Positions 954-55,934 of a stretch of DNA of 64,000 nucleotides are shown here, one piece after another (the first letter of the stretch is position 1; every line of letters begins with the position of its first letter). Location: NCBI RefSeq assembly GCF_003018255.1, contig NZ_CP027440.1, one strand, 5' to 3'. The notes beneath the pieces are model-generated. The model had not been told where the DNA came from. It ran no database searches and was given only the letters and a program-made list of their open reading frames with translations. This stretch comes from Escherichia coli (GTDB lineage Bacteria; Pseudomonadota; Gammaproteobacteria; Enterobacterales; Enterobacteriaceae). A program made the position numbers and the translations under genes.

Positions 954-2072
954 TTATTCTCCCCGTGAGTCAGCGTTATCTTTCTTTTGCTGACGACCCA
1001 GTTCACGCACCGCCATCACGCTGACACCGGCAACCAGCCCAACCACACCGCCGAGCAAACCAATAGCGCCCGCAGAGACGTTGCCGCCTTCTTTAGCGTT
1101 AACGTCCGGTTTCTGTGAACGCGGAGTCTGGTTTTCGACGTTGGCAAGCTGATGGATGCCTTTATGGAAGCCGATACCTTCTTCGTTACAGCCATAGCAC
1201 GGGTGACCAATCGCTACCGGCCACACGCCGCCAACATCGCAGAATTGCAGCGTTGAGCAGTTGCCGTAAGTTTCTGGCCCTTTACAGCCGAGGTGGTACA
1301 GGCACCAGCCTTCGCGGTGACCTTCATCACCGAACTCTTTGGCAAAACGACCAGCATCGAAGTGCGGGCGACGTTCACAGTGTTCGTGAATCAGACGACC
1401 ATAGGCGAAAGTCGGACGGTTTTTGTCATCCAGTTTCGGCGGTTTGCCGTAAGTGATGATGTGCGCAACGGTCGCGAGGAAGTTGTGCGGGTTCGGCGGG
1501 CAGCCAGGAATATTGATAACGGTTTTGCCCGGTAGAACTTCTTGCAGGCTGACTGCGCCAGTTAGGTTAACTCCAGCTGCGGCAACACCGCCCCACGCAG
1601 AGCAGGAACCGATAGCGATAATGGCTGCTGCGCCTTCCGCCGCTTTGCGGATGTGATCCACAATCGGCTCACCGGCAACCATGCAATAAATACCGTTATC
1701 TTTTAATGGGATGGAACCATCCACCACTAACACATACTGCCCTTTGTACTTCTCGAGAGCGTTATGTTTGTTCTCTTCGACCTGATGACCGAAGGCGGCG
1801 GAAAGCACTTCGTGATACTCCAGAGAGATAGTCTCCAGCACGAGGTTTTCTACCGTTGGATGCGTTGCACGAAGCAGAGATTCCGTACAACCGGTGCACT
1901 CCTGCGCGCCAATCCAGATAACTGGCGGACGCTGCGGGTTAGTAACCGATTCGGCCATCTCTGCAGCGGCTTTGCTACTTAACCCCATGGTGGCGGCTAA
2001 TGCTGCACAAAGCTTCATGAAATCACGACGGTTAATGCCGTGAGAATGGATGAGGGTGTTATCTCCAGTCAT
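954..2072 (-). CDS. hybO: Hydrogenase 2 small subunit HybO (372 aa) with twin-arginine signal
   Basis: ORF track 372 aa; N-terminal RRDFMK Tat motif; [NiFe]-hydrogenase small-subunit Cys clusters; recognised as HybO. Confidence 0.95.
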
Positions 2073-2260: not shown

Positions 2261-2548
2261 TCAATTTTCGAGGCGATAACCGGCCATAAAAAAGCGCAAC
2301 GTAGAACAGGAATTATTCTCACGAAAGAAATCCATTACCATCTCTTTATCCAGTCCATAGCGGCGCGTCAGAATACCCGCTTCCCAGGCGCTAAGCTGGC
2401 GATCTCCGGTCTTTTCGTACATCCGGTGTGAGTAGCCTAATACAAAACCGCGTTTATAATCGGCACAGTATTTTGTCACATTAACCGCACTGTCGGCATG
2501 CGTTGCTTTTAATCCCGCCATTAAGCCTTTACCAAAATGGTTATTCAT
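2261..2548 (-). CDS. yghW: DUF2623 family protein YghW (95 aa)
   Basis: ORF track 95 aa, recognised sequence and position next to the hyb operon. Confidence 0.88.
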
Positions 2549-2666: not shown

Positions 2667-3554
2667 TCAGGAGAGATATTTATCGAACCATTTCAGCGTC
2701 CTTTGCCAGGCAAGATCGGCGGCAGATTTGTCATAACGGGGCGTGGAATCATTATGGAATCCGTGATTAACCCCCGGATATATATACGCCTCATAGACCT
2801 TATTATTGGCTTTCAACGCCGCCTCGTAAGCAGGCCAGCCCTCGTTGATTCGGGTGTCCAGTTCCGCGTAGTGCAACAGTAAAGGCGCTTCAATCTTCGC
2901 CACATCGGCAGTGGGTGCCTGACGACCATAAAACGGCACCGCGCAGGCCAGTTCCGGGTAAGCGACCGCTGCCGCGTTCGATACGCCACCGCCATAGCAA
3001 AATCCAGTAATACCCACTTTGCCTGTCGCTTGCGGATAGCTTTGCATAAACTCAATCGCGGCAAAGAAATCATTCATCAGTTTGGTTGGATCAACCTGCT
3101 GTTGCAGCTCACGACCTTTATCATCATTACCCGGATAACCTCCAACGGAACTTAAGCCGTCAGGTGCCAGGGCGATATACCCCGCCTTCGCCACTCGCCG
3201 CGTCACATCTTCGATATACGGATTCAGTCCACGATTCTCATGCACCACCACCACGGCTGGCGTTTTGCCGCTCATTTTTGCGGGCTTCACCAGATAACCC
3301 CGTACCTCGCCGTGACCATTTGGCGAGGGATACGTGATGTACTCTGCAACAATTTCCGGGTCGGTAAACTCTACCTGAGTCGCCAGCGCATAATTTGGCT
3401 TGAGCAAATCAAACAGCGCTAATGCCGTCATCCCGCCCACCGCATACTTCGCCGCAAGGTTGAGGAACTCACGTTTCGAGATTTTCCCGTGAGCGTAATA
3501 GTCGTAGTAATCCAGCAACTCTTGTGGGAAATCTTTGGCGGTTAAACGCGGCAT
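2667..3554 (-). CDS. yghX: Dienelactone hydrolase family protein YghX, intact (295 aa from ATG with GAGGAG SD; track ORF extends to 3593)
   Basis: Continuous 308-aa ORF; GFCYGG nucleophile motif and HGF near C-terminus typical of the dienelactone hydrolase fold; start chosen at internal Met preceded by a Shine-Dalgarno sequence. Confidence 0.8.
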   Translation of the reverse strand: MPRLTAKDFPQELLDYYDYYAHGKISKREFLNLAAKYAVGGMTALALFDLLKPNYALATQVEFTDPEIVAEYITYPSPNGHGEVRGYLVKPAKMSGKTPAVVVVHENRGLNPYIEDVTRRVAKAGYIALAPDGLSSVGGYPGNDDKGRELQQQVDPTKLMNDFFAAIEFMQSYPQATGKVGITGFCYGGGVSNAAAVAYPELACAVPFYGRQAPTADVAKIEAPLLLHYAELDTRINEGWPAYEAALKANNKVYEAYIYPGVNHGFHNDSTPRYDKSAADLAWQRTLKWFDKYLS

Positions 3555-3710
3555 CGTTGCACTCCTCAACTGGTGTTTTTTTAAGCAAAGCATAAGCGCG
3601 TGTTTTTGCCCAGTTTTTCGTCACTCTGTGAGCCAGACTACGGGATACGCGCTGGCGAATCGCTAAACTAGAAACATTGTTTCGAAATTGAACGATGGAA
3701 AGGAGAGGTC

Positions 3711-4751
3711 ATGGTCTGGTTAGCGAATCCCGAACGTTACGGGCAGATGCAGTACCGCTATTGCGGAAAAAGTGGTTTACGCCTGCCCGCGTTATCGCTC
3801 GGTTTATGGCACAATTTCGGTCACGTTAACGCGCTGGAATCACAGCGTGCGATCCTGCGTAAAGCGTTTGATTTAGGCATTACGCACTTTGATTTAGCCA
3901 ACAATTACGGGCCGCCTCCAGGAAGCGCAGAAGAAAACTTTGGTCGCCTGCTGCGCGAGGATTTTGCCGCTTATCGCGATGAACTGATTATCTCTACCAA
4001 AGCCGGATACGATATGTGGCCCGGTCCATACGGCTCTGGCGGCTCACGTAAATACCTGCTCGCCAGCCTCGACCAAAGCCTGAAGCGTATGGGGCTTGAG
4101 TATGTCGATATCTTTTACTCTCATCGCGTCGATGAAAATACGCCGATGGAAGAAACCGCCTCTGCGCTGGCTCATGCTGTACAAAGCGGTAAGGCGCTGT
4201 ATGTCGGGATCTCCTCTTACTCGCCAGAGCGGACGCAAAAAATGGTCGAGTTGCTGCGCGAGTGGAAAATTCCGCTGTTAATTCATCAACCTTCGTACAA
4301 TTTACTGAACCGCTGGGTGGATAAAAGCGGCCTGCTGGATACCTTGCAAAATAACGGCGTGGGCTGCATTGCCTTTACTCCACTGGCTCAGGGATTGCTG
4401 ACCGGAAAATATCTCAACGGTATTCCGCAAGATTCACGGATGCATCGTGAAGGGAATAAAGTTCGTGGTCTGACGCCGAAAATGCTCACCGAAGCCAACC
4501 TCAACAGCCTGCGCTTATTGCATGAAATGGCACAGCAGCGTGGACAATCAATGGCGCAAATGGCGTTAAGCTGGTTGCTGAAAGATGAGCGAGTGACGTC
4601 GGTATTGATTGGAGCCAGCCGCGCGGAGCAACTTGAGGAGAACGTGCAGGCGCTGAATAATCTGACATTTAGCACCGAGGAGCTGGCGCAGATTGATCAG
4701 CATATCGCCGATGGAGAGCTGAATCTGTGGCAGGCGTCTTCCGATAAATGA
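3711..4751 (+). CDS. gpr: L-glyceraldehyde 3-phosphate reductase (aldo-keto reductase) Gpr/YghZ, 346 aa
   Basis: ORF track 346 aa; aldo-keto reductase family sequence recognised as YghZ. Confidence 0.92.
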   Translation: MVWLANPERYGQMQYRYCGKSGLRLPALSLGLWHNFGHVNALESQRAILRKAFDLGITHFDLANNYGPPPGSAEENFGRLLREDFAAYRDELIISTKAGYDMWPGPYGSGGSRKYLLASLDQSLKRMGLEYVDIFYSHRVDENTPMEETASALAHAVQSGKALYVGISSYSPERTQKMVELLREWKIPLLIHQPSYNLLNRWVDKSGLLDTLQNNGVGCIAFTPLAQGLLTGKYLNGIPQDSRMHREGNKVRGLTPKMLTEANLNSLRLLHEMAQQRGQSMAQMALSWLLKDERVTSVLIGASRAEQLEENVQALNNLTFSTEELAQIDQHIADGELNLWQASSDK

Positions 4752-4790: not shown

Positions 4791-5354
<564 letters not shown>

Positions 5355-12099: not shown

Positions 12100-12203
12100 G
12101 CTTTTTACGCCTCAAACTTTCGTTTTCGGGCATTTCGTCCAGACTTAAGTTCACAACACCTCACCGGAGCCTGCTCCGGTGAGTTCATATAAAGGAGGAA
12201 CGT

Positions 12204-23298: not shown

Positions 23299-23406
23299 GG
23301 TATTCCTTACCGGAGAAATTATAAGCCCGACAACAATACGCCTGTGGCATTGTTTGCTCAAACTTATCGCGAGTGATTTGGCTCACACTCCGGTAAAGAT
23401 TCCCCA

Positions 23407-26538: not shown

Positions 26539-26869
26539 AATAGCAAAATATAAACCGTCCCCAAAAAAGCCACCAACCACAACCCAGACAAATAACGAGC
26601 GAGAATACATATAGCCAAAACTCGAACATTTCCCGCATAAAGAGTTTTCTTAAGATAAGAATAATAAGTGGTGTCAGAAGAAAAAATGCTGCAATCATTG
26701 CTTGCAATATACGATCTTCGCCTGAAACAGAAGGTATACTGCAAATATTGTCTCCCGACTCAAGCATCCAGTCATACTTATTGAAAGCAAAAAAAGAATC
26801 TATTAACCAATAAGTAAGCATTATATATAATAGTGCTTCAAATATTGATAGTAGTTGTTTTTTTAACAT
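26537..26869 (-). CDS. ygiZ: Small inner-membrane protein YgiZ (110 aa, about 3 TM segments); here the third gene of the hcp module
   Basis: ORF track 110 aa; hydrophobic segments; ATG lies 6 nt after the stop of the upstream 236-aa gene; AT-rich like the insert. Confidence 0.85.
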   Translation of the reverse strand: MLKKQLLSIFEALLYIMLTYWLIDSFFAFNKYDWMLESGDNICSIPSVSGEDRILQAMIAAFFLLTPLIILILRKLFMREMFEFWLYVFSLVICLGCGWWLFWGRFIFCY

Positions 26870-26875
26870 ATCTGA

Positions 26876-27586
26876 TTACTCATTAATCAATTTTTTGATA
26901 TGTTCTCTAATCTCTAACAACCTCATACCATAAGAGATGAATTTATAATCATCTGTATCACGCGCAGGCAAATTATTAATTAAACAAATAAAAAAGCCCA
27001 AATCTCGTTCAACACCACGATTATATCTAATACCAGCCATAATATACTGCTCATTCGTCATATACAGTGTTGCCGAAGAGGGATAATCAAAAAGGACAAG
27101 ATCTCTTAAATAAGTAGCAGCAATTTGAAAGGTAAAATCATCCTCCATTAGGCATGTCGCTAACTCTAACTGATTTCTGGTAGTTAATTCTGAAGGGTCT
27201 AGACCTAGAGTAATCGCTGCGGTTCGTATTTGTATACCCATTGAGCCAAATGATGTTTTATTTTCAGGCATATCTAACAATCCCATCATTCTTTTTGTTT
27301 CATATATCTGAAACTTATAATTTTCAGGCATACCTCCTGACTCAATCCAGGCCACGCCGCCCAGTAACTCTGGACGAATTCCAGCGGCGTATGCATGTTT
27401 AATTATTTTGTCTCTATTATATTGTACATATGCATCTTTATAAGCATTTAAATAATATACTCCTGAACGGCGACGCGAATCATTTTTTCCTAACTTCCAG
27501 AGTAAAACGTCCATTTCATCCCATTTACGGAACTTCGCTTGTGGAATTGTACAATATCTATTTTTTATAGTGAGATCGCTTTTCAT
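26876..27586 (-). CDS. Hypothetical protein (236 aa from ATG; track ORF extends to a TTG at 27613); possible lysozyme-like / lytic-transglycosylase-like T6SS cargo
   Basis: ATG begins 2 nt after the hcp stop; no signal peptide; contains V-x3-E-S-x3-P (VAWIESGGMP) followed by GSMGIQIRTAAITLGL and IRYNRG, reminiscent of SLT-domain motifs (ES...GLMQ...AYNxG). The family assignment is inference only. Confidence 0.6.
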   Translation of the reverse strand: MKSDLTIKNRYCTIPQAKFRKWDEMDVLLWKLGKNDSRRRSGVYYLNAYKDAYVQYNRDKIIKHAYAAGIRPELLGGVAWIESGGMPENYKFQIYETKRMMGLLDMPENKTSFGSMGIQIRTAAITLGLDPSELTTRNQLELATCLMEDDFTFQIAATYLRDLVLFDYPSSATLYMTNEQYIMAGIRYNRGVERDLGFFICLINNLPARDTDDYKFISYGMRLLEIREHIKKLINE

Positions 27587-27588
27587 AT

Positions 27589-28068
27589 TTAAAAAATCCT
27601 TTCTTCCCAACAACTATATGATTCCGTACTCGCGATATGGTGCTTCCATGTTATATTTTTATAATTAAGAACAATGACCTCTTCCGGCTGATTACCCGCA
27701 TGTGTAATTGAGTGTGGATAACATGTCAGAATATTCGATAAATGTGCTCCTTGCAATTCAATTGTGTAAAACCTTTCAATACAACCGCCAGAATTAACTC
27801 TATAAAAATTAAATACAGCTGATAACTCTTCATTTTCAGAAAGAGCGGCATTTAATAAAGGGGAGGATTTATCTATTGGCTTGTAAAATTTTATGGGGTG
27901 ATGCACTACATTATACTCTCGACTTAAAGAATGGTCGAACTGTAAAACAAAAATTTCATCCACATGATTTATTTGATATTTATTACCAATAGATGCATAC
28001 GAACCACAACCCTCAGAGATCAAACCTTGTATTTTCCCTTTAATTGATAAGTATATGATATTTGACAT
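27589..28068 (-). CDS. hcp: Hcp family type VI secretion tube/effector-carrier protein (159 aa), orphan copy
   Basis: 159 aa, typical Hcp size; blocks HPIKFYKPIDKSSPLL and LNYKNITWKH...SYSCWEER align with canonical Hcp motifs (TPFxFTKEIDxSSPxL, ITWTY...SWNER); GGAG Shine-Dalgarno upstream of ATG; no other T6SS structural gene in the window. Confidence 0.85.
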   Translation of the reverse strand: MSNIIYLSIKGKIQGLISEGCGSYASIGNKYQINHVDEIFVLQFDHSLSREYNVVHHPIKFYKPIDKSSPLLNAALSENEELSAVFNFYRVNSGGCIERFYTIELQGAHLSNILTCYPHSITHAGNQPEEVIVLNYKNITWKHHIASTESYSCWEERIF

Positions 28069-28317
28069 ATATATTCTCCATAATCATTTTTTCCGAAAAA
28101 CTCCTGTATCATTTGCATAATACATCTCTCCTGTGGGAGCTTATGGGAAGTTGATTTAAGTATTGTCATTTTCAGAAAATATTTATCCCGCATCGGTGAA
28201 TCAGAGAAAGATCAGACTTTTGCTAAATTCGCAAAAGACTTTGCACATTTTGCTAATTTCACCGTACCGCTCTGTGACGTACTATAGTCGGCAAACGTCT
28301 CACCTTGAGGTTAAAAA

Positions 28318-28929: not shown

Positions 28930-29244
28930 ATGATTACAGTAATCGCAGAAATCCGTACTCGTCCTGGTCAACATCACCGTCAGGCAGTGTTGGATCAGTT
29001 TGCTAAAATCGTTCCAACCGTACTGAAAGAAGAAGGTTGCCACGGCTATGCGCCAATGGTGGATTGCGCTGCTGGCGTGAGTTTCCAGTCTATGGCACCG
29101 GATTCTATCGTGATGATTGAGCAGTGGGAAAGCATCGCGCATCTTGAAGCGCATCTGCAAACCCCGCACATGAAAGCATATAGCGAAGCCGTAAAAGGTG
29201 ACGTGCTGGAGATGAATATTCGTATCCTGCAGCCGGGGCTTTGA
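28930..29244 (+). CDS. ygiN: Quinol monooxygenase YgiN (104 aa)
   Basis: ORF track 104 aa; ABM-domain sequence recognised. Confidence 0.93.
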   Translation: MITVIAEIRTRPGQHHRQAVLDQFAKIVPTVLKEEGCHGYAPMVDCAAGVSFQSMAPDSIVMIEQWESIAHLEAHLQTPHMKAYSEAVKGDVLEMNIRILQPGL

Positions 29245-29288
29245 CATTTCTAAAAAGAGGCCGGTGCTGCTACCGGTCTCAGCCCAGA

Positions 29289-30176
29289 TTAGCCATTCTT
29301 TCTTCCCGTTTTCAGTCCTCGATGGAAATCGTTAATTCGCTTAATGGTTTTAACCGCACGCTGCGGCACTGCGGAAGCTACCGACCAGACAATCATTTCC
29401 AGACACAACAATACCGTACCATGTAGCGGCGTTTTCCCTTTTTCATCCCCGCGCGGAACATGAATCACGATACTGGCGTCTTTGCTAAAACGTGAATCCA
29501 GCGCGTTTGTCAGCAAAATAACAGGGATCCCTAGCCGCCTCGCCTCACGAAGCGTTGTCAGCCCTTCCCGGTGCGCTGATTTTTGCGCCATCATGATCAG
29601 AACATCGCCACGTTGAAGCGCGATCAGTTGCTCGGCAAGGCCAATACCCGTACGGTTTAGTGCCGTGGCAGGCAAACCTATGCGGTTGAATAGTCGTGCG
29701 GTATAGTCCGCCAGAATACCCGAAGCGCCAATGCCAAAAATTGCGACTTGCCGTGCCTGCACCAACAACGCTACAGCTTGCGCAAGCGCGTGGCGGTTTT
29801 CAGGCTCTGACAGGACATTACAGGTATACAAATGCCCTTCAAGAACAAAGTCGATTGCGGTGTTAACATCGCTCGTCAAGTTACTCACCGTCGTAGACAT
29901 CTTTTCGCTGGAACTAAGGGCTGGACCAAGCCACTGTTCCAGAGTGCGTTTCAGATCACGCAGCCCGGCAAACCCCAGGGCCTGTATAGCCCTGATAACT
30001 GTGGCATCGGAAGTGTTCAACGTGGCCGCAATTTCCATCGCCGTTTGCTCGAGTACCACTTCACGATGCTCATTAATGTAGCTGGCGACAACTCTTAACC
30101 CAGGCGTTAACTGACTCGCGCGAGTGCGAAAACGCTCACCAAAAATATCAACCCGCACTTTATCTTTCTGGATCAT
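29289..30176 (-). CDS. RpiR/MurR-family transcriptional regulator (HTH_6 plus SIS domain), 295 aa
   Basis: N-terminal RpiR-type HTH (TSDATVIRAIQALGFAGLRDLK) and C-terminal SIS domain; the start ATG overlaps the stop of the upstream substrate-binding gene in an ATGA arrangement. Confidence 0.82.
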   Translation of the reverse strand: MIQKDKVRVDIFGERFRTRASQLTPGLRVVASYINEHREVVLEQTAMEIAATLNTSDATVIRAIQALGFAGLRDLKRTLEQWLGPALSSSEKMSTTVSNLTSDVNTAIDFVLEGHLYTCNVLSEPENRHALAQAVALLVQARQVAIFGIGASGILADYTARLFNRIGLPATALNRTGIGLAEQLIALQRGDVLIMMAQKSAHREGLTTLREARRLGIPVILLTNALDSRFSKDASIVIHVPRGDEKGKTPLHGTVLLCLEMIVWSVASAVPQRAVKTIKRINDFHRGLKTGRKNG

Positions 30177-31120
30177 TTAGCCTCCGGTAGAGGTCGCCCT
30201 GCAATTTGTGATTGTATCTGCGCAGCCATCAGCCCCAGAGATGCAAAGGAGTTAGAAATTGCCTCTTCACGAGAAATCAGCACATAACGCCCGGAACGAC
30301 AGGCAGTCAGAAACTGACACCATCCCGGCATGACTTTTTCCATTGCTGCCAGCTCATCCTGAGGTTTACCACCGGTGTCACCGCGCCAGGTTGCAAAAAC
30401 AAAATCGGCATCCAGTTCAGGTAAACGCTCCGCGCTCACATCCATTCGCCCACCTTCAGGAATGCTCTCAATCAGCGGCGGAAAACGAAAACCCGCATCG
30501 CGTAATACCCGCCCCAGCGAATGATAGCTATGCATCACATTAATTTTTCCCTGGTTTGCCTGAATCACCGATACCGTTATTTTTTGGCTGTCCAGCGTCG
30601 CCTTCAGCGCATTGATTTGTGCCTGATAGCGGCGTTCAAGTATCGCCAGCTGCGACTGCGTTCCTGTAAGTCCTGCCAGCTTGCGATAGATTTCTGGCGC
30701 ACCCCCTTTGAGATGATCAATGCTCACCGTGGGCGCAATTTTTTCAAGTTGTTCAATGGGCGTATTACGGGTCGGTTCTGTGATGATCAGGTCAGGCTTT
30801 GCCGCCACAATCGCTTCAATATCAATATCAGCGGTACCAATAAAGGCGATCGATGAATTATCAAAGTCGACACCTGTCAATAACGCGCCAGATCGAATGA
30901 AATGGCTACCGTCAGGCCGAGTTCGCCCGTGGCTGGCGACAGGAGGTACACCGAGCTCAATCAGAGGAATAGTGATATCAAGATCGTGTAAAGAGACAAT
31001 TCTCTTTGGATGAGCAGGAACAGTGACTTTGCGCCCTAAATCATCAGTAAATACCTGAACAGGTTCTGTTGCACGGGAAAAAAATGACAACAGTATCAGC
31101 AGAGAAAAAAATAAACGCAT
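30173..31120 (-). CDS. Periplasmic iron-siderophore/cobalamin-type ABC substrate-binding protein (FecB/FhuD-like), about 315 aa
   Basis: Start set at MRLFFSLLILLSFFSRA signal peptide with GGGAG Shine-Dalgarno (track ORF extends to 31183); class III binding-protein-like sequence; operon context with FecCD permeases. Confidence 0.82.
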   Translation of the reverse strand: MRLFFSLLILLSFFSRATEPVQVFTDDLGRKVTVPAHPKRIVSLHDLDITIPLIELGVPPVASHGRTRPDGSHFIRSGALLTGVDFDNSSIAFIGTADIDIEAIVAAKPDLIITEPTRNTPIEQLEKIAPTVSIDHLKGGAPEIYRKLAGLTGTQSQLAILERRYQAQINALKATLDSQKITVSVIQANQGKINVMHSYHSLGRVLRDAGFRFPPLIESIPEGGRMDVSAERLPELDADFVFATWRGDTGGKPQDELAAMEKVMPGWCQFLTACRSGRYVLISREEAISNSFASLGLMAAQIQSQIAGRPLPEAK

Positions 31121-31130
31121 ATAACTCCCG

Positions 31131-32180
31131 TTAAAAACTGTTCCTGCGCTGCCAGAGCAGTAGCAAAAAAAATGGTCCACCAATCAGTGAGATAATGATT
31201 CCGGCAGGCAGTTGCAAAGGCAAAAAAGCCAAACGACCAATGCTATCCGCCAGAATAACTAACAACGCCCCCGATACCGCGCTCCCCAGCAGTAATGTCG
31301 TCTGCCCGCCACGTAGAATAAAACGTGATATATGGGGTGCTATCAATCCGACAAAACCGATGTTACCAACACACGAAACGCAGACGGCTGTCAGGATTAT
31401 TGGTGCGGCGACACGTAACAACGCCAGACGAGAACTATTCACCCCTAACCCGGTTGCAACCTGATGACCAAGCAGAGCGATATCCGCCGTCCTGGCGGTG
31501 AACAGCAATAAAAGAGCGGCTGGCAACATCCAACAGGCTGAAATACCGACTAACATCCAGTTAGCTGCATGCAGGCTTCCCGATAACCACATCAATGCAG
31601 TTTGTACATCTCGAACATCTGCAGTGGTCATAAATACACCGATACCGGCGGCGAAAAACCAGGAAACACCAATACCAATCAGAACAAATCGCGGGCGGGA
31701 AATATCGCGCGCACAAAAAATCACGATTAAAGCCACCAACAAGCCACCAGCAAGACCAGCCACTGGACGCCAGAACATTCCCAGCATTGGAAACTGGAAA
31801 ATCAGCCACAGCACCGCCACGCTACATCCTTCTTTGACGCCGATTAAACCAGGATCGGCAAGGCCGTTACGCGCAATGGATTGCATCGCGGCCCCCGCCA
31901 TACCTAACATGGCTCCGCATAGCAATGCCATGATGACTCTCGGCAAGCGAATATCCTGCACAATATAACGTGCGTCTGTGCTTACGTTTTCTGGAGCAAA
32001 CAACGCTCGTCCTACTTCCGATGCCGGGACAGAAAAAGAACCCTGCATCAGACCGAATATCAGTATTCCAACCGCAAACAGAAACAGCCCACCAAGCAAC
32101 AGCAGATTTTTAGGGCGTACCAGTGTCGAAAACTTACCAACACGTAGTGGGCGTAGCCCGACGTTCATTATCCGACTCAT
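31131..32180 (-). CDS. FecCD-family ABC permease (349 aa)
   Basis: Polytopic membrane protein; FecCD/BtuC-type sequence; start overlaps the upstream permease stop. Confidence 0.85.
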   Translation of the reverse strand: MSRIMNVGLRPLRVGKFSTLVRPKNLLLLGGLFLFAVGILIFGLMQGSFSVPASEVGRALFAPENVSTDARYIVQDIRLPRVIMALLCGAMLGMAGAAMQSIARNGLADPGLIGVKEGCSVAVLWLIFQFPMLGMFWRPVAGLAGGLLVALIVIFCARDISRPRFVLIGIGVSWFFAAGIGVFMTTADVRDVQTALMWLSGSLHAANWMLVGISACWMLPAALLLLFTARTADIALLGHQVATGLGVNSSRLALLRVAAPIILTAVCVSCVGNIGFVGLIAPHISRFILRGGQTTLLLGSAVSGALLVILADSIGRLAFLPLQLPAGIIISLIGGPFFLLLLWQRRNSF

Positions 32181-33160
32181 TTGAACATCCTCGTCGCCAT
32201 AATGACAAAAACAGGCGCACCAACTAACGCCGTCATGACACCGGTCGCTAACTCATGGGGCGTGAAAAGCGTCCGGGCAATAATATCTGCCAGTAATAAC
32301 AAAAGTGCGCCGACACAAGCTGAAAGAGGGAGCAGAACGCGCAGATCCGCTGATACCAGACGCCGGACAATCTGCGGTACCAACAGGCCGACAAAACCAA
32401 TGGGGCCAGCAATCGATACGGCTGCGCCACAGAGCAACGCGATCGCAAGCAGGGTAAATGTTCGCGTGCGGAGTACAGAGACGCCCAGCCCCTGCGCCAT
32501 GCGATCGCCCAGTGCCAACATGTTAAGGTAGGGTGCAAGGTAAAGGGCTAACACAAATCCCCCCAGAGAAAACCAGGCGGACGTACCCAGCGTCGCCCAA
32601 TCCTGCCCCGCTAAATCACCTGCTAGCCATGTCCGCATCGCCAGCAGTGTTTGTTCGTCAAGAATCAGGATTGCAGCCGTTATTGAGGACACGAACGCCG
32701 ATAGCGCCACGCCGCATAAAGTAACTTTCATTGGCGTTACCCCTGAACGCCCTGCGGAGGAAAGCAGCAATATCAACAGGAACAATAACGCGCCCCCCGT
32801 AGATGCCAGCAGTGGGCGTCCAACCGGAAAGGCCAGTCCAAGCGCACTGGCGGCAACGACAGCAAGAGCGGCTCCGGCATTTAAGCCTAAAATATGTGGC
32901 TCCCCCAATGGGTTACGAATGACAGCCTGCAACAAAGCACCAGCAACACCAAGAGAAGCACCGGTAAGCAATGCTGCCGCTAAACGCGGCAAACGGAGTC
33001 TTACAATTACGTTGTGATCGAAGTTTTGCGGATCAAAATGAAGAAATGCCTGCAACACCGTTTGTGGTGCAATAAATCGGGCACCAATCCCTGGATATAC
33101 CACGCATCCCACCAGCAGTAAGGCGAGGAAAATTACAGTAACCAGCCCTGTGCGCATCAT
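32177..33160 (-). CDS. FecCD-family ABC permease (327 aa)
   Basis: Polytopic membrane protein paralogous to the adjacent permease; start overlaps the ATPase stop. Confidence 0.85.
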   Translation of the reverse strand: MMRTGLVTVIFLALLLVGCVVYPGIGARFIAPQTVLQAFLHFDPQNFDHNVIVRLRLPRLAAALLTGASLGVAGALLQAVIRNPLGEPHILGLNAGAALAVVAASALGLAFPVGRPLLASTGGALLFLLILLLSSAGRSGVTPMKVTLCGVALSAFVSSITAAILILDEQTLLAMRTWLAGDLAGQDWATLGTSAWFSLGGFVLALYLAPYLNMLALGDRMAQGLGVSVLRTRTFTLLAIALLCGAAVSIAGPIGFVGLLVPQIVRRLVSADLRVLLPLSACVGALLLLLADIIARTLFTPHELATGVMTALVGAPVFVIMATRMFK

Positions 33161-33966
33161 ACTTTTTCTACACCACGAAACGGCATGAAGAACGGCTTTC
33201 CCGTCAGAGGATTTATTGATGCGTGAACATCAACGTCAAAGACAGCTTTTACCAGCTCAGGCGTGCAATGCTCCCCCTCATTCAACACACGCACCACTTT
33301 CCCCTGGCGTAAAAATATCAACGTATCGCCATAATTGACGGCAAAATTCAGATCATGCAACACCACGACGACTGTACGCCCGTGATGACGCGTTAAATCA
33401 TGTAATAACTCAAGAATTTCAACCTGATAACGTAAATCAAGCCAGGTTGTGGGTTCATCCAGCAGGATATAAGGCGTCTTTTGCGCCAACACCATCGCAA
33501 TCCAGCAACGCTGGCGCTGCCCACCAGAGAGTTTTTCAACAGGTAAATGTGCAAACTCCTGCGTACCGGTTAATTTCAGGGCCTCTTCCACCGCCTGCTC
33601 ATCGGCGTCGCTCCATTGACGTATGAAATTTTGCCAGGGAAAACGCCCACGCGACACCAGTTCATAAACGGTTAAGCCCTCCGGCAATAATGGCGACTGC
33701 GGCAAGATCCCAAGTCTACGGGATAACGCTTTCGTTGGTTGCTCGTGAATCGCTTTGCCATCAAGCAATATCGAACCGCCCATAGGTTGCAAGATACGTG
33801 CAATGGTGCTGAGCAACGTCGACTTTCCACAGCCGTTTGCCCCAACCAGAACGGTCATTTTTTCTGTGGGAACGGAGAAAGAAACACCATCAACAATGAT
33901 CTTCTTGTGATACCCGGCAGAAACATTGTCGAGGATCAGCCCCTGCCCTTTTGCGTTATGTGCCAC
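33157..33966 (-). CDS. ABC transporter ATP-binding protein (FecE/FhuC-like), 269 aa
   Basis: Walker A GANGCGKST, ABC signature LSGGQRQR, Walker B ILLDEPT; GTG start. Confidence 0.88.
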   Translation of the reverse strand: MAHNAKGQGLILDNVSAGYHKKIIVDGVSFSVPTEKMTVLVGANGCGKSTLLSTIARILQPMGGSILLDGKAIHEQPTKALSRRLGILPQSPLLPEGLTVYELVSRGRFPWQNFIRQWSDADEQAVEEALKLTGTQEFAHLPVEKLSGGQRQRCWIAMVLAQKTPYILLDEPTTWLDLRYQVEILELLHDLTRHHGRTVVVVLHDLNFAVNYGDTLIFLRQGKVVRVLNEGEHCTPELVKAVFDVDVHASINPLTGKPFFMPFRGVEKV

Positions 33967-34220
33967 GTGTACGCCAACTTAATCAAAGACAAACAAAAAT
34001 AAAACTCATTCTCCTTTGAGAGTTTGACGCCACAAAATGTAGTAGTCAAGCAGTTAAAAGCCACACAAAAACAAGGTAAATAACAGGTAAAATATTTTTA
34101 TACATAAAAATAAAAACATTAAATATCAATAAATTAAAAGCAATCAAATTGTATAAGCCTTTCATAAAAACACATGTAGCAATTTTTTGTTATTTCTCAT
34201 TTACTACTACATTACTGCGT

Positions 34221-34240
34221 GATTGAATGATTCTCAATTA
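34221..34240 (+). promoter_or_regulatory. Putative Fur-box-like element upstream of the TonB-dependent receptor gene
   Basis: gattgaatgattctcaatta partially matches the Fur consensus, about 100 nt upstream of the receptor start within an AT-rich divergent promoter region; weak. Confidence 0.3.
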
Positions 34241-34339
34241 CATATCCGATGGCGAAATAACAAACGGATAGTGCTTAGTGAGCAATAAGAAACAATTTTC
34301 ACTCGCGACAATCCGCGAGTTTTTGGGATAACAGACTAA

Positions 34340-36481
34340 ATGGCTATGTTCACACCTTCATTCTCAGGACTCAAAGGTCGGGCGCTCTTTTCACTGCTTT
34401 TTGCGGCACCGATGATTCATGCAACAGACTCTGTAACGACCAAAGATGGCGAAACAATCACTGTTACAGCAGATGCAAATACCGCAACTGAGGCAACCGA
34501 TGGTTATCAACCTCTGAGCACCTCCACGGCGACATTAACCGATATGCCGATGCTGGATATCCCGCAGGTGGTCAATACGGTTAGCGATCAGGTTCTGGAA
34601 AACCAGAATGCGACGACGCTGGATGAGGCGCTTTATAACGTCAGTAACGTGGTACAGACCAATACATTAGGCGGGACTCAGGATGCTTTTGTACGCCGTG
34701 GGTTTGGCGCAAACCGGGATGGCTCCATCATGACCAACGGTCTGCGAACCGTACTTCCTCGCAGTTTCAACGCCGCCACAGAACGTGTGGAAGTGCTAAA
34801 AGGCCCGGCCTCCACGCTGTATGGCATTCTCGATCCTGGCGGACTGATTAACGTCGTGACCAAGCGCCCGGAAAAAACATTCCATGGTTCGGTTTCAGCC
34901 ACCTCCTCCAGTTTTGGTGGCGGCACTGGGCAACTTGATATCACAGGTCCCATTGAAGGCACTCAGCTGGCGTATCGCCTTACCGGGGAAGTGCAGGATG
35001 AAGATTACTGGCGAAACTTCGGTAAAGAGCGCAGTACATTTATTGCCCCGTCACTCACCTGGTTTGGTGATAATGCAACAGTAACCATGCTCTATTCCCA
35101 TCGGGACTATAAAACTCCGTTCGATCGTGGAACGATTTTCGACCTTACGACGAAACAGCCCGTAAACGTTGATCGAAAAATACGTTTTGACGAACCGTTT
35201 AATATTACAGATGGTCAGTCCGATCTGGCGCAACTCAACGCAGAATATCATCTCAATAGCCAGTGGACAGCGCGCTTTGATTACAGCTACAGCCAGGATA
35301 AATACAGCGATAATCAGGCGCGTGTTACCGCGTATGATGCAACGACAGGAACACTGACACGGCGTGTTGATGCAACTCAGGGATCTACCCAGCGTATGCA
35401 TGCTACTCGTGCGGATCTGCAAGGGAATGTTGATATTGCCGGATTCTATAATGAGATTCTGGGTGGGGTGTCATATGAATATTATGATCTTCTGCGTACA
35501 GATATGATTCGCTGTAAAAAAGCTAAAGATTTCAATATCTACAACCCTGTTTATGGTAATACCAGCAAATGTACAACGGTTTCGGCGTCGGACAGTGATC
35601 AGACGATCAAACAGGAGAGCTACTCAGCGTATGCACAGGACGCACTCTATCTGACCGATAACTGGATTGCCGTCGCCGGGATCCGCTATCAGTATTACAC
35701 GCAGTATGCGGGTAAAGGCCGTCCTTTTAATGTCAATACTGACAGCCGCGATGAACAATGGACTCCCAAACTGGGGTTGGTCTACAAACTGACGCCATCG
35801 GTATCCTTATTTGCCAATTATTCGCAAACATTTATGCCGCAGTCGTCAATTGCCAGCTACATTGGCGATCTTCCACCGGAATCATCTAATGCTTACGAAG
35901 TCGGGGCAAAATTCGAGCTATTCGATGGTATCACCGCAGATATTGCGCTGTTTGATATCCATAAACGTAATGTGTTGTATACCGAAAGTGTTGGTGATGA
36001 AACCATTGCCAAAACGGCAGGCCGTGTTCGTTCAAGAGGGGTAGAAGTCGACCTTGCGGGAGCATTAACTGAAAACATTAATATCATTGCCAGCTACGGC
36101 TATACCGATGCTAAGGTTCTGGAAGATCCTGATTATGCAGGTAAACCATTGCCGAATGTTCCTCGTCATACCGGTTCGCTATTCCTGACCTATGACATTC
36201 ATAACATGCCTGGCAATAACACACTGACGTTTGGCGGTGGTGGACATGGCGTAAGCCGTCGTTCGGCAACCAATGGGGCTGACTATTATCTGCCAGGCTA
36301 TTTTGTTGCCGATGCCTTCGCCGCATACAAAATGAAATTGCAGTATCCGGTCACACTGCAATTAAACGTCAAAAACCTGTTTGATAAAACGTATTACACC
36401 TCTTCCATCGCCACAAATAATCTGGGGAATCAGATTGGCGATCCGCGTGAAGTGCAATTCACGGTGAAAATGGAATTTTGA
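34340..36481 (+). CDS. TonB-dependent outer-membrane siderophore-type receptor (713 aa)
   Basis: Signal peptide, TonB-box-like ETITVTA, plug and barrel sequence blocks, C-terminal aromatic residue (..VKMEF); divergent from the ABC importer operon (arrangement resembles fit-type iron uptake loci; symbol not assigned). Confidence 0.9.
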   Translation: MAMFTPSFSGLKGRALFSLLFAAPMIHATDSVTTKDGETITVTADANTATEATDGYQPLSTSTATLTDMPMLDIPQVVNTVSDQVLENQNATTLDEALYNVSNVVQTNTLGGTQDAFVRRGFGANRDGSIMTNGLRTVLPRSFNAATERVEVLKGPASTLYGILDPGGLINVVTKRPEKTFHGSVSATSSSFGGGTGQLDITGPIEGTQLAYRLTGEVQDEDYWRNFGKERSTFIAPSLTWFGDNATVTMLYSHRDYKTPFDRGTIFDLTTKQPVNVDRKIRFDEPFNITDGQSDLAQLNAEYHLNSQWTARFDYSYSQDKYSDNQARVTAYDATTGTLTRRVDATQGSTQRMHATRADLQGNVDIAGFYNEILGGVSYEYYDLLRTDMIRCKKAKDFNIYNPVYGNTSKCTTVSASDSDQTIKQESYSAYAQDALYLTDNWIAVAGIRYQYYTQYAGKGRPFNVNTDSRDEQWTPKLGLVYKLTPSVSLFANYSQTFMPQSSIASYIGDLPPESSNAYEVGAKFELFDGITADIALFDIHKRNVLYTESVGDETIAKTAGRVRSRGVEVDLAGALTENINIIASYGYTDAKVLEDPDYAGKPLPNVPRHTGSLFLTYDIHNMPGNNTLTFGGGGHGVSRRSATNGADYYLPGYFVADAFAAYKMKLQYPVTLQLNVKNLFDKTYYTSSIATNNLGNQIGDPREVQFTVKMEF

Positions 36482-36483
36482 TC

Positions 36484-36509
36484 AAAAAAGCCCGGTATGT
36501 TTACCGGGC
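36484..36509. terminator. Bidirectional terminator between receptor gene and GPH symporter gene
   Basis: Seen in sequence: A-run, then gcccggta-tgtt-taccgggc hairpin (T-run on the minus strand). Confidence 0.5.
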
Positions 36510-36588
36510 TGAGACTGATGACAAACTCCAAATTGTCTGATGCGCTACGCCCATCAGATCTACCATAGAAATTCAATATATTAAATTT

Positions 36589-37920
36589 TCATATATTTTT
36601 AGGCTGTAAACACACCTTAATCTGTTCGTAATATTCATTATTAATCAGATAAAATCTCATGATGAGTCCGGTAATCAGGTTAAGTATCGCGGGAATGATC
36701 GTCATTAACAGGCAGATCCCCCACAACGCCTGTGGTGTTTGTTCTACGCCAGGTTGATAGTCCATAAACGCTAAAGCGATTCCGATAAACCCTCCCGCCA
36801 GTCCCATACCAAACTTTTGAAAAAAGAGAATCCCGCCAAATGCCAGTCCAGAAACACGTTGCCCCGTTTTCATTTCACCATAATCCACTGACTCAGCAAT
36901 GGATGCCCAATAAATGGGAAGCTGAATATCAGTCAGAAAGGTCACCACAATATAAAATGTAAAAGCTAACACTATAGAATTTGGTTGCACGAAATACATC
37001 GCACCACCCACCACGAACGCCAGTAATTGGGTATAACGAAATATTTTTATTTTGTCGTAGAGTCGAGTAAGCCAGGTGCAAGCGATCATAGCCAGAACAG
37101 AGGCGATCACGCCTGAAGTTAAAAACGGTGAAATTAAAGCATCCCCACCATTCAGGTAATATTTTGCATAATATGCAGCGACAGAGTTACGAATAATCCC
37201 GCCAAACATAATGATCGCAATTACAGCGCCCAAAATGAGCCATTGATCATTTTTGATCAGTAACCGAAACTGCGCGGCCATACCGAGACTGGGTTTTGGA
37301 TGGTAGATGCGCTCTCTCACGCTAAAAAAACAATACAGGCATAAACACGTTGCCAGAATTCCCATTGCCCCCATTGCTATTTGATAACCCAGTTGTACGT
37401 TATTCTTCCCAAGATACATTGCAGATAAAGGAACAATAATTGTTACGGCGAACATGGCAATTTTTGTCATAACAAAACGATAACCATTGGCGCTCAATCG
37501 CTCTTGTGGATCATCCGTGATAACGCTGATTAATGAAACATAAGGAATAGCGATTAACGTATAGGTCAAGGTAAGTAACACATAGGTAGCCCAAGCCCAT
37601 AAAAGCTTAACTGAATAATCGGTATTAGGTGTGGTGAACATCAACCAAATGCTTATCCCAAACGGTATTGACATAAAAAGCAACCACGGCCGATATTTTC
37701 CCCAACGTGTATTCGTTCTGTCTGTCATTGTTCCCACAACTGGATCAATCACAGCATCAAGGATACGTACAGAAAATAACAGAATACCTAAGTCGACGGG
37801 TTTCAGACCAAATACATCCGTGTAAAAATAAGTGATGATCATGGCCAAAGACATCATTACTATCGCGATAGCCATATCACCAGCACCAAAACCTATCTTT
37901 TCATTTATTGTAAGTTTCAT
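36589..37920 (-). CDS. MFS/GPH-family glycoside-pentoside-hexuronide:cation symporter (about 443 aa)
   Basis: 12-TM-like hydrophobic profile with MelB/GPH-like N-terminal region (GFGAGDMA, DxxxDPxxG-like DAVIDPVVGTMTDR); start set at the ATG for MKLTINEK. Confidence 0.8.
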   Translation of the reverse strand: MKLTINEKIGFGAGDMAIAIVMMSLAMIITYFYTDVFGLKPVDLGILLFSVRILDAVIDPVVGTMTDRTNTRWGKYRPWLLFMSIPFGISIWLMFTTPNTDYSVKLLWAWATYVLLTLTYTLIAIPYVSLISVITDDPQERLSANGYRFVMTKIAMFAVTIIVPLSAMYLGKNNVQLGYQIAMGAMGILATCLCLYCFFSVRERIYHPKPSLGMAAQFRLLIKNDQWLILGAVIAIIMFGGIIRNSVAAYYAKYYLNGGDALISPFLTSGVIASVLAMIACTWLTRLYDKIKIFRYTQLLAFVVGGAMYFVQPNSIVLAFTFYIVVTFLTDIQLPIYWASIAESVDYGEMKTGQRVSGLAFGGILFFQKFGMGLAGGFIGIALAFMDYQPGVEQTPQALWGICLLMTIIPAILNLITGLIMRFYLINNEYYEQIKVCLQPKNI

Positions 37921-38206
37921 ACACAGCACTCATTGATTACGTGAACTTATATTAAAAACAAATATATCTGAACTCATTCAGCACATAACTTTACGAGTGA
38001 GCATAAATGCATTGGTTGATACCACAACAAACCATTGAGTCAATATTGAGCAACATCACATAAAAACCAATTTCACTTAATCTCATGATTTATATATTTA
38101 ATTGTGGTTTTTTCTGTTTTATGTCACAGATAGTGAACAAGCACCATGCGTAATAAAAGTTAAAGAATGTAGAGTTGGTATCAACCACTTGAAATGAGGC
38201 TTTGTC

Positions 38207-38959
38207 ATGATAAAAATTTATAAAGCCAGTAAAGGTCAGCTAAAGCATCGTGAAATCTTTGATGAAATAAAGAAAAAAGTAGATAACGGTGAATGGAAAG
38301 AAGGCAAAGCCATACCGACAGAAAGGGAATTGTCAGAATATTATTTAAGTAGCAGAACAACTATTCGAAAGGCAATAGAAAGTCTTAAACAACGCGGCTA
38401 CCTGCATAGTGTCCACGGGCAAGGAACATTTGTATTGCCTTCTCGTAGTAGAGAAAATCATTTATTGCATAGTTTTACCGACGATATTAAAGCTCGAGGT
38501 GGTATACCAGCACAGAATATTCTTGAGATAGGCTATGTTCCTGTCAGTGATGTTATCAGAAAAAATCTCGACCTGGATATCCATATCCAAACCGTATTCT
38601 GTATAAAACGCGTTCGCTATATGGGAAGTACCCCCCTGGGTATTCAGACATCATGGCTTGCATTAAATGACAGGCAAGAAATAACCCAAGAAGATCTGCT
38701 GGCGACGGGTTCGCTCTATATTTTACTGGAAGAAAAACTCGCTATTAAACCTTTAGAAGCAACAGAAATTATCTCTGCCCGGCTTCCCTCGCCCCTTGAG
38801 CGTCAATTACTGGAACTGACTGCCGATGATGTCGTATTAAGTTGTACCCGCGTCACGTTATCCGTGGAACGCAAACCAATGGAGTATGTAGAGATGGTGT
38901 ATCCCGCAAGCCGGTACTCCTACAAAGCACGAATTACAAAAGACAGTTTTAGCGTGTAA
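38207..38959 (+). CDS. GntR/HutC-family transcriptional regulator with UTRA effector domain (250 aa)
   Basis: N-terminal GntR winged HTH (PTERELSEYYLSSRTTIRKAIESL) and a C-terminal domain of UTRA length. Confidence 0.85.
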   Translation: MIKIYKASKGQLKHREIFDEIKKKVDNGEWKEGKAIPTERELSEYYLSSRTTIRKAIESLKQRGYLHSVHGQGTFVLPSRSRENHLLHSFTDDIKARGGIPAQNILEIGYVPVSDVIRKNLDLDIHIQTVFCIKRVRYMGSTPLGIQTSWLALNDRQEITQEDLLATGSLYILLEEKLAIKPLEATEIISARLPSPLERQLLELTADDVVLSCTRVTLSVERKPMEYVEMVYPASRYSYKARITKDSFSV

Positions 38960-38972
38960 CAGAGAGAATATT

Positions 38973-40049
38973 GTGAACAAAATAGAACAAGCTGTAATTT
39001 ATAACAAAATATTAGGTTCTTTAGCCTGCGCAGGTATGGGCGATGCATTAGGCGCAGCGACTGAACTCTACAGCATTGATGAAATAAAAGCTCAATGGGG
39101 AGGTTTTTTAAATGCCTTTGTTTCTCCTCCTGCCGATACATTCGCTGGCTCATTAAATGGTATTGCGGGACTTATCACCGACGATTCCAGCCAAATGTAT
39201 GTGTTTTCAGAAGGGTTAATTGAGGCTGGATTTGATAACTTCACCAATAATGACTGGTTAGCTTGTCTTCTGCGTTGGGCCGATATGCAGCCCTACGCAA
39301 ATTATAAAGGCCCCACAACAGAACAAATCGTCAAGGCACTAAAAGAAGGTAGACCAACAAACACCATTGGGCGTATTGGAACATCTTCTCGTCAGGCACC
39401 CAATGTCGGCACCACGAATGGAGCAGGAATGCGTGTAGCCCCTGCAGGATTGATCTGGCCAGGCAAGAAAGAAAAAGCGTGTCACCTGGCGCTAATAACT
39501 TGCCTACCTTCGCATGACACCAATATTGCGATTGCCAGCGCTTGCGCCATCGCTGCGGCGACATCACAAGCTATGTTACCAGAAGCTTCGCTCACATCAT
39601 TACTGGACGCCGCAATCTGGGGAGCGAATTACGGCGAACGCCTGGCCAAACAATATGCACGATGTGTCGCAGGGCCATCTATCGCCATGCGCATCCAACT
39701 TGCAGCGGACATCGCCAGACGAGCCAATGACCTGGAGTCTTGTCTGCGAGAAATGGAAGGTTTGGTTGGTAACTCTGTTGCCGCCCATGAATCCATTCCT
39801 GCGGCAATCGGTCTATTGCTGTACTGCAAAGGAGAACCCTGGGAAACCATTCATGCCTGCGCCAATATTGGCAATGACACCGATAGCATCGCTACGATGG
39901 CAGGCGCAATTGCAGGGGCATGGCGCGGTTTTGATGCGCTCCCTGAAGATAAATATGCCTTTTTCCGCGCCGTAAATAATAAAGATTTCGATATTGAAGC
40001 GATCGCATCGGGTCTGACATTGCTTGCATTAGAGGCACAGGAGAAATAA
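38973..40049 (+). CDS. ADP-ribosylglycohydrolase (ARH/DraG) family protein (358 aa)
   Basis: N-terminal GSLACAGMGDALGAATE and C-terminal NIGNDTDSIATMAGAIAGAW blocks match the two conserved ARH-family metal-binding regions. Confidence 0.8.
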   Translation: MNKIEQAVIYNKILGSLACAGMGDALGAATELYSIDEIKAQWGGFLNAFVSPPADTFAGSLNGIAGLITDDSSQMYVFSEGLIEAGFDNFTNNDWLACLLRWADMQPYANYKGPTTEQIVKALKEGRPTNTIGRIGTSSRQAPNVGTTNGAGMRVAPAGLIWPGKKEKACHLALITCLPSHDTNIAIASACAIAAATSQAMLPEASLTSLLDAAIWGANYGERLAKQYARCVAGPSIAMRIQLAADIARRANDLESCLREMEGLVGNSVAAHESIPAAIGLLLYCKGEPWETIHACANIGNDTDSIATMAGAIAGAWRGFDALPEDKYAFFRAVNNKDFDIEAIASGLTLLALEAQEK

Positions 40050-41047: not shown

Positions 41048-41051
41048 GACT

Positions 41052-41966: not shown

Positions 41967-41993
41967 AATCATATATATACAAAGGTAAATATC

Positions 41994-43118: not shown

Positions 43119-43213
43119 AGTCAAACTATAGATACAAAAACATTCTAATACATGGAATCATCAGATGGTGTATTCGATCACCAAAAATATATTTTATTCT
43201 GAAAGGGAATATT

Positions 43214-43948: not shown

Positions 43949-43961
43949 TCTGGAATAAAAA

Positions 43962-44831: not shown

Positions 44832-44839
44832 TCAACGAC

Positions 44840-44868
44840 AACCCGGCAAAACACATGTTTGCCGGGTT
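44840..44868. terminator. Hairpin between the island's last gene and parE
   Basis: Seen in sequence: aacccggcaaa-acacatg-tttgccgggtt, 11-bp perfect stem; no strong T-run. Confidence 0.4.
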
Positions 44869-44875
44869 AAGATTA

Positions 44876-46771
<1,896 letters not shown>

Positions 46772-52953: not shown

Positions 52954-53437
52954 TACAGCTTAATATTGCCCCGATAAGCGGGGCAATCTCTTATAATCCA
53001 CCATTCATAATTCCCATCAATATATAAACACATACATATCCAACCTTTATTTAACATTAATACTCAATTTAATGTTAAATCGTCATATGCAAGCGATATT
53101 GTAATTAAAGTAAGTGAATACATCACAACATAACTATTTGATATTATTTAAATACTTTACTTTCATTTCACCAGATTTAAATTTAATAATTCAAAAACAA
53201 TGTTGCAGGGATCACACTACACAGTATTGAACATTGTGATTGATATATTGCCCCCCTACTATCCATTAAACATAAATATTTGTTTCACCGAATAACAACA
53301 TATTTAAAAGAAACACAAAAGCATTCTCACTCTTTATTGAATTAATATTTATATTCACGTAACGAATTTATTAGCACCCTCTCAACAGTCGATATTCATC
53401 ATTATTATATATTTGCGTTATATAAGGAGATATATCC

Positions 53438-55234: not shown

Positions 55235-55251
55235 TTAAGAAGGGAATAAAA

Positions 55252-55920: not shown

Positions 55921-55934
55921 CAGGGAAACAGGCT

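Follow-up and report, generated by a model that had tools for sequence, protein, structure and literature searches.

We analysed a stretch of 64,000 nucleotides from Escherichia coli (assembly GCF_003018255.1, contig NZ_CP027440.1), hereafter the window, in which the gene yghX is found as an uninterrupted coding sequence (CDS) on the minus strand (Table 1). Counted from the in-frame ATG at 3554, it comprises 295 codons followed by TGA (2667-3554, 888 nt), and its only stop is the terminal one. The open reading frame (ORF) itself runs without interruption over 2667-3593 of the same strand and would yield 308 residues from its first ATG; the start at 3554, which is also the one used by RefSeq in six other strains, is the correct one, and every YghX orthologue begins with M(P/T)RLTAKDF. 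The RefSeq CDS of yghX in strain RM14723 has identical coordinates and is 99.7% identical in sequence to the window, and the gene order hybO-yghW-yghX/gpr-yqhA is common to the window, K-12 and RM14723. The original prediction, which had described a continuous dienelactone-hydrolase-like frame with a GFCYGG motif at this place, is borne out on both counts: the frame is closed only at its end, and the motif is real (codons 184-189).

Table 1. Features of the yghX locus in the window (coordinates count from the first nucleotide of the window)
Feature	Coordinates	Strand	Basis
yghX CDS, intact	2667..3554	-	ORF translation, NCBIfam NF041440, Pfam DLH and YqhI-like
Shine-Dalgarno sequence GAGGAG	3562..3567	-	7 nt upstream of ATG 3554
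'YqhI-like' module, codons 1-58, predicted long Tat-type signal peptide	3381..3554	-	Pfam PF23678, E=1.7e-21
S-K-R-E-F-L, codons 26-31, Lys-Arg variant of the twin-arginine motif	3462..3479	-	alignments
TA in codon 37 (TAT, Tyr), missing from K-12 and its relatives; first lesion	3445..3446	-	alignments
A-L-A, codons 56-58, predicted signal-peptidase site after K52-P53-N54-Y55	3381..3389	-	alignment; 4ZV9 chain aligns from residue 59
Mature alpha/beta-hydrolase (dienelactone hydrolase family) domain, codons 59-295, 237 residues	2670..3380	-	phmmer, AlphaFold2
Single C in codon 157 (ACC, Thr), missing from K-12; second lesion, frame restored	3085	-	alignments
GFCYGG nucleophile elbow, codons 184-189; Cys186 = TGC 2997-2999	2988..3005	-	aligned to ClcD 4U2C and to 3F67
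Asp233 codon (GAC), triad acid	2856..2858	-	aligned to Asp of HMGGQDHF in ClcD 4U2C
His264 codon (CAC), triad base	2763..2765	-	aligned to His of GAGHSF in ClcD 4U2C
yghX/gpr divergent intergenic region, 156 bp	3555..3710	.	ORF map; arrangement shared with K-12, Citrobacter koseri and Enterobacter mori
hybO	954..2072	-	ORF map
yghW	2261..2548	-	ORF map
gpr	3711..4751	+	ORF map
yqhA	4791..5315	-	ORF map

Two family models are matched by the product over their full lengths, namely NF041440 of NCBIfam ('YghX family hydrolase'; E=1.4e-176, all 292 model positions, with 585.7 bits where the curated cut-off is 460) and Pfam DLH (PF01738; 165.4 bits against a cut-off of 21, E=1.8e-48, model positions 1-217 of 217), so that the reading frame cannot be regarded as a chance one; with gpr diverging from it on one side and yghW-hybO downstream on the other, the gene also stands at the orthologous position. 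A phmmer search connects YghX with the Protein Data Bank (PDB) entry 4ZV9 (E=6.4e-160) and, far more remotely, with the dienelactone hydrolase ClcD (1DIN and 4U2C, E of about 1e-15), and the AlphaFold2 model (mean predicted local distance difference test score, pLDDT, of 82.6) shows alternating strands and helices in the hydrolase domain, mostly at pLDDT above 90. The translation includes ...KVGITGFCYGGGVSNAA... as well as ITGFCYGGG, and in HMMER alignments Cys186 falls on GYS(C123S)LGG of the ClcD variant 4U2C and on GFCWGG of 3F67, while Glu106 aligns with the Glu of HEILG in 4U2C. Cys186, Asp233, His264 and Glu106 are invariant in 16 orthologues, and so are G184, F185, G188 and G189; the ClcD counterparts of the four residues we take to be C123, D171, H202 and E36. 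By homology, YghX is an alpha/beta-hydrolase-fold protein of the dienelactone hydrolase family with a Cys-His-Asp triad. In this family, a Cys activated by His and Asp attacks the carbonyl group of an ester or lactone, a thioester intermediate is formed and water releases the product. Dienelactone itself is an unlikely substrate of YghX, since no catechol or muconate pathway genes are found beside yghX in the window or in the C. koseri and Enterobacter mori neighbourhoods.

Three solved structures help to place the protein. ClcD of Pseudomonas knackmussii (1DIN, 4U2C and others), a carboxymethylenebutenolidase (EC 3.1.1.45), belongs to the same Pfam family and shares the triad and the Glu beside the nucleophile, but its similarity to YghX is remote, and it is a cytoplasmic enzyme of chlorocatechol degradation lacking any N-terminal extension. 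The nearest solved relative outside YghX is 3F67 of Klebsiella pneumoniae (KpDLH, E=7e-23), with an ITGFCWGG elbow and conserved His and Asp; its chain of 241 residues aligns to YghX residues 82-293 only, and nothing in it matches the N-terminal module. By far the closest is 4ZV9, the 2.0-angstrom structure of an 'uncharacterized protein' of E. coli O157:H7 Sakai (PMC8533429), which corresponds to residues 59-294 of the window protein (E=1.7e-159) with the same triad and only 5 substitutions in 236 positions (about 98% identity); it differs in V69F, T118A, S135N, S172R and Y229F (the second residue being that of the PDB protein), and the 58-residue N-terminal module is absent from the chain. 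The active-site Cys of this Sakai enzyme, which has been purified as EcoDLH, is modified or oxidised in the crystal, and the purified protein had no detectable phosphotriesterase activity on paraoxon or FDDEP, KpDLH in contrast being weakly active on FDDEP (bioRxiv 10.1101/2025.10.30.685675). The inactivity of EcoDLH on these two phosphotriesters, the sole assays found in the literature searched, must be counted against a catalytically competent YghX. In a review of 2013 (PMC3709699), a proposal is cited which, from a GXCXG motif, names yghX as one of three candidates for a cPHB polymerase; we treat it as speculation and do not adopt it.

In K-12, the gene is broken. The original prediction had taken the K-12 allele to be annotated as a frameshifted pseudogene, and NC_000913.3 indeed annotates yghX as pseudogene b4658. 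The K-12 MG1655 allele resembles that of the window in its locus, neighbours, start codon and Shine-Dalgarno sequence, and a stretch of 1,101 bp around the gene is 96.7% identical; what sets it apart is the loss of the TA of codon 37 and of one C of codon 157, leaving a product of 47 residues, YqhI, as opposed to 295. An alignment of the window, K-12 and RM14723 contains exactly these two K-12 indels, so the K-12 gene is clearly not an intact one, and the window allele, which is complete at both sites, falls outside the K-12-type pseudogene allele class. Since 3 bp are lost in total, the K-12 frame is regained after about 120 out-of-frame codons, which hold several stops. In QML220614 the 2-bp deletion occurs alone, and its exact junction is found in slightly more genomes than that of the 1-bp deletion (1,248 versus 1,197), for which reasons the 2-bp deletion probably preceded the 1-bp one.

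The 47-codon gene yqhI (b4755) overlaps the 5' end of the yghX pseudogene in NC_000913.3. The frame-0 translation of the K-12 allele, MPRLTAKDF...LAAKCGRRDDGISVV or, divided at the lesion, MPRLTAKDFPQELLDYYDYYAHGKISKREFLNLAAK-CGRRDDGISVV, is an exact match to the published YqhI sequence (PMC6001520), and YqhI consequently consists of YghX residues 1-36 and 11 frameshifted residues. The overlap of YqhI with the YghX leader corresponds to 3381-3554 (minus strand) in the window and to 3309-3452 in the extracted K-12 locus. YqhI has been validated as a small protein (PMC6001520) and belongs to the small proteins induced at low Mg2+, its transcript rising under this condition; deletion of yqhI caused a growth defect, which plasmid-borne YqhI did not complement (PMC11429745). 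The main text of both papers mentions neither the yghX pseudogene nor a hydrolase (PMC6001520, PMC11429745). In work on K-12 and W3110, yghX is regularly referred to as a pseudogene, and metabolic engineers choose it as a neutral place for chromosomal integration (e.g. PMC7677707).

A further K-12-type allele deserves mention on its own. The yghX of EcN_Sk carries the K-12-type double frameshift and differs from K-12 by 19 substitutions, 17 of which are synonymous in the ancestral frame. Such a pattern (dN/dS, the ratio of nonsynonymous to synonymous substitution rates, of 0.03 between two K-12-type alleles differing at 19 sites) could suggest recurrent frameshifts or a frameshifted gene which is still functional; we rejected both, as the differences form a single patch, which indicates recombination. 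All 19 are confined to 96 bp between the two lesions (CDS alignment columns 352-447), and it looks as if a divergent donor with an intact gene had contributed a short tract here by recombination.

The distribution of the two states was assessed in 5,426 complete E. coli genomes. The locus is matched in 5,425 of them, over at least 80% of its length in 5,415. The 2-bp site is intact in at least 3,785 genomes (70%); at the 1-bp site, the exact intact 53-mer occurs in 3,747 genomes, with 4,221 matching overall, and the exact K-12 junctions are present in 1,248 (2-bp site, 54-mer) and 1,197 (1-bp site) of the 5,426. The junction queries of 53-54 nt were meant to offer a 28-mer seed to one allele type only, which succeeded in part, since the bases lost belong to short repeats (T/TA and C/CC) that allow the other allele to seed too; the counts were taken from the bands of exact-match identity (at least 99%) and are accordingly bracketed, not an ORF-by-ORF census. 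Intact yghX is the majority state of E. coli, at roughly 70-77% of genomes against about 23-30% for the K-12 state. In an evenly spaced sample, 29 of the 39 full-length matches have an in-frame length (28 of 1,101 bp and one of 1,104 bp) and the other 10 are shorter and K-12-like. Annotation agrees in each case looked up: all six in-frame-length alleles checked are annotated as intact (RM14723, 0H18, O157:H7 7636, the B strain T7Express, 83972 and 1162T7), and all six shorter ones as frameshifted or pseudogenes (K-12, QML220614, 52F4, AR_0162, EcN_Sk and CRE444). Two alleles depart from this scheme in detail. In 0H18, an extra in-frame GTG lengthens the Val run before His105-Glu106 (VVVV to VVVVV), giving 296 residues, still annotated as intact. 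NCTC9041 retains no more of yghX than its final 96 bp, which abut IS1F and lie beside mdtM/yjiN instead of gpr; this indicates a truncation by rearrangement mediated by an insertion sequence (IS).

The least familiar part of YghX is its N-terminus. A search of 1.84 billion representative proteins places the YqhI-like module in 1,050 clusters. Residues 1-58 are near-invariant across enterobacterial genera, with K27, R28, F30 and L31 fully invariant, and the window reads S-K-R-E-F-L-N where the consensus of the twin-arginine translocation (Tat) pathway has S/T-R-R-x-F-L-K. The motif is followed by LAAKYAVGGMTALALFDLL, then by K52-PNY and by A56-L57-A58. Among 13 more distant homologues, full-length or partial, 11 have R-R in the column of K27-R28, then x-F and one of L, M, I or F; further along come a Gly/Thr-rich, weakly hydrophobic stretch, in most of them a basic residue, and an invariant P-N-Y-A-x-A-x-Q-V; P53, N54, Y55, A56, A58, Q60 and V61 are invariant even at this distance. 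A twin-arginine motif with a weakly hydrophobic core and an A-x-A sequence makes up a textbook Tat signal with a signal-peptidase I site, and Lys-Arg variants are tolerated; an h-region, a basic residue in the c-region and the A-x-A site are all recognisable in YghX. The chain of 4ZV9 aligns from YghX residue 59 onwards and contains no residue of the module. In the AlphaFold2 model of the precursor, the N-terminal helices are of moderate confidence and pLDDT drops to less than 50 over residues 53-57, where cleavage is predicted; this is compatible with a detachable leader, although not decisive against a packed domain. On balance, the leader appears somewhat more like a Tat-type signal than anything else, and YghX is accordingly predicted to be exported and cleaved after Ala58.

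Several observations speak against such a signal. No Tat-signal profile was matched (NCBIfam at E up to 10, Pfam at E up to 0.001), and the NCBIfam scan of the 63 N-terminal residues at E up to 10 returned the YghX family alone. E. coli YghX has Lys-Arg and not Arg-Arg; the 25 residues preceding the motif are unusually long and conserved for the n-region of a signal, being almost invariant across genera and exceeding parts of the enzyme in conservation; and AlphaFold2 folds the module into three helices with pLDDT of 65-85, compatible with a folded domain that stays on the protein. Together with the existence of a separate Pfam family (PF23678) and with the K-12 stump behaving as a soluble small protein, these points would suit a module which is retained, either as a YqhI-like cytoplasmic domain with a membrane anchor (residues of about 38-51) or as a lid on the hydrolase, leaving the enzyme tethered or cytoplasmic. 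We consider this the less likely course, albeit one to be taken seriously: the canonical R-R-x-F-(L/M/I) stands at the very same column in distant homologues and is followed there by P-N-Y-A-x-A-x-Q-V, the protein was crystallised as a chain without the module, and model confidence collapses exactly at residues 53-57.

The intact gene is the ancestral one, as full-length syntenic orthologues occur in other genera. A protein search recovered YghX of full length (294-299 residues, 85-91% identical, with the YqhI-like and DLH parts) in C. koseri, Pseudescherichia, Enterobacter, Kosakonia, Leclercia, Lelliottia and others. In C. koseri, yghX lies between the divergent gpr and yghW-hybO-hybA, with one chemoreceptor (methyl-accepting chemotaxis protein, MCP) gene inserted, and in Enterobacter mori gpr is likewise divergent upstream. 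The K-12 deletions were not seen in the outgroup genomes, nor was any resequencing error seen at the locus. Pairwise Nei-Gojobori estimates among intact E. coli alleles give dN/dS of 0.04-0.13, apart from one closely related intact pair at 0.37, a value resting on just 10 differences; against C. koseri and Enterobacter mori, dN is 0.06-0.10 and synonymous sites are saturated, so that dN/dS cannot be computed. This pattern of substitution identifies yghX as a gene under purifying selection. The original prediction had held that this strain keeps the ancestral functional copy: ancestral it is, and its being functional is suggested by dN/dS, by the conserved triad and by the folded, crystallised and nearly identical protein of Sakai. 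On the whole, the original prediction is supported; the intactness of yghX is correct, yet ordinary and already known.

It could be objected that yghX is intact here in sequence but silent or decaying, an unexpressed relic that has merely escaped a disabling mutation so far. On the minus strand of 3555-3710, nothing resembling a promoter emerged from a scan for the sigma-70 consensus; loss of the gene is tolerated in about a quarter of E. coli, and its use as a neutral landing site in K-12 speaks for its being dispensable in the laboratory; furthermore, the purified protein has no reported activity. The promoter scan is nevertheless a weak negative (2 sites against 2.1 expected), and consensus scans for promoters and terminators around yghX gave counts equal to the shuffled expectation and are uninformative. 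The low dN/dS among intact alleles of distant E. coli lineages, a protein identity of 85-91% across genera in spite of saturated synonymous sites, the retention of all catalytic residues and of the Shine-Dalgarno sequence, and the finding that the K-12 start is translated and its transcript increases at low Mg2+, which implies working expression signals, together render a silent relic very improbable. Hardly credible at all is a product of 308 residues starting at ATG 3593: it is the longest ORF in this frame and was allowed for by the original prediction, but we reject it, because this ATG lacks a Shine-Dalgarno sequence and a strong one precedes ATG 3554, the NCBIfam model match begins only at residue 16 of the longer form, its 13 extra codons are missing from all orthologues (RefSeq and orthologue starts being MPRL or MTRL), and K-12 YqhI, detected by chromosomal tagging, begins at the ATG equivalent to 3554 and not to 3593 (PMC6001520).

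We are therefore highly confident in the joint reading of 2667-3554 (minus strand) as an intact, ancestral yghX which encodes a two-part hydrolase precursor and which K-12 has lost by two deletions. The proposed course of events is as follows. The gene encodes a precursor of 295 residues, made up of a leader of 58 residues and an alpha/beta-hydrolase of 237; the leader would combine S-K-R-E-F-L, a weakly hydrophobic Gly/Thr-rich core, a basic residue and A-L-A into an export signal. The enzyme has the triad Cys186-His264-Asp233, with Glu106 next to Cys186; its substrate is most likely an ester or a lactone, hydrolysed by way of a thioester on Cys186 and probably in the periplasm. In K-12 and in about one E. 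coli genome in four, the gene was lost through the 2-bp deletion at codon 37, to which most of these genomes probably added the 1-bp deletion at codon 157 later, and in K-12 the surviving start is still translated into the 47-residue stump annotated as YqhI.

Besides yghX, the window differs from K-12 in a number of places. Between ygiN and parE, the window has 15.6 kb that K-12 lacks (29243-44879); this segment encodes an RpiR-type regulator, an ATP-binding cassette (ABC) importer of the iron-siderophore type (periplasmic binding protein, two FecCD proteins and an ATPase) and a TonB-dependent receptor of 713 residues, and further an MFS_2 transporter, a GntR/UTRA regulator, an ADP-ribosylglycohydrolase, SIS and PfkB proteins, a phytase-like protein, a porin of the KdgM family and a DUF2608 protein. 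At ygiC/ygiD, a 3.7-kb insertion relative to K-12 (52954-56647) carries genes for an arylsulfotransferase (598 residues) followed by DsbA-like and DsbB-like proteins, a set which resembles the assT-dsbL-dsbI arrangement of uropathogenic E. coli. Near ygiZ, 163 bp of K-12 are replaced by a 1.3-kb segment (26848-28140) with an orphan Hcp gene (T6SS_HCP, 27589-28068, minus strand) and an ORF of 245 residues lacking a Pfam match (26876-27613, minus strand). Conversely, K-12 segments are missing at 23400-23404, 60103-60176 and 6397/6398, the absent material being the mqsRA toxin-antitoxin genes (927 bp), the ygiL-yqiGHI fimbrial operon with IS2 (6.6 kb) and 234 bp at yghA/exbD. Rfam matches at the gathering score comprise a Sib antitoxin RNA (63217-63366, minus strand), a flavin mononucleotide (FMN) riboswitch upstream of ribB (59602-59750, minus strand) and the small RNA ES173 (12102-12165, plus strand).

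Part of what has been described here is established: the intact allele is common, RefSeq names the gene automatically by means of a dedicated NCBIfam model, a nearly identical structure is deposited in the PDB, and the pseudogene status in K-12 is standard annotation, exploited by metabolic engineers. YghX is an orphan enzyme with a solved structure. At this locus K-12 is the exception, and inventories of enzymes, Tat substrates and small proteins which are based on K-12 misrepresent the species there; phenotypes ascribed to YqhI should be interpreted with the origin of this protein as a remnant of the YghX leader in mind. As a more tentative proposal, which we hold with rather less than even confidence, the intact YghX of most E. 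coli may be an unrecognised, Tat-exported periplasmic cysteine hydrolase, whose leader does more than target the enzyme and of which YqhI is merely the stump. If this is true, YghX would be missing from K-12-based lists of Tat substrates only because K-12 harbours a pseudogene, the long and near-invariant n-region of the leader may bind a dedicated factor or gate export, and YqhI, studied as a candidate regulator induced at low Mg2+, would be nothing but a translated stump of that leader.

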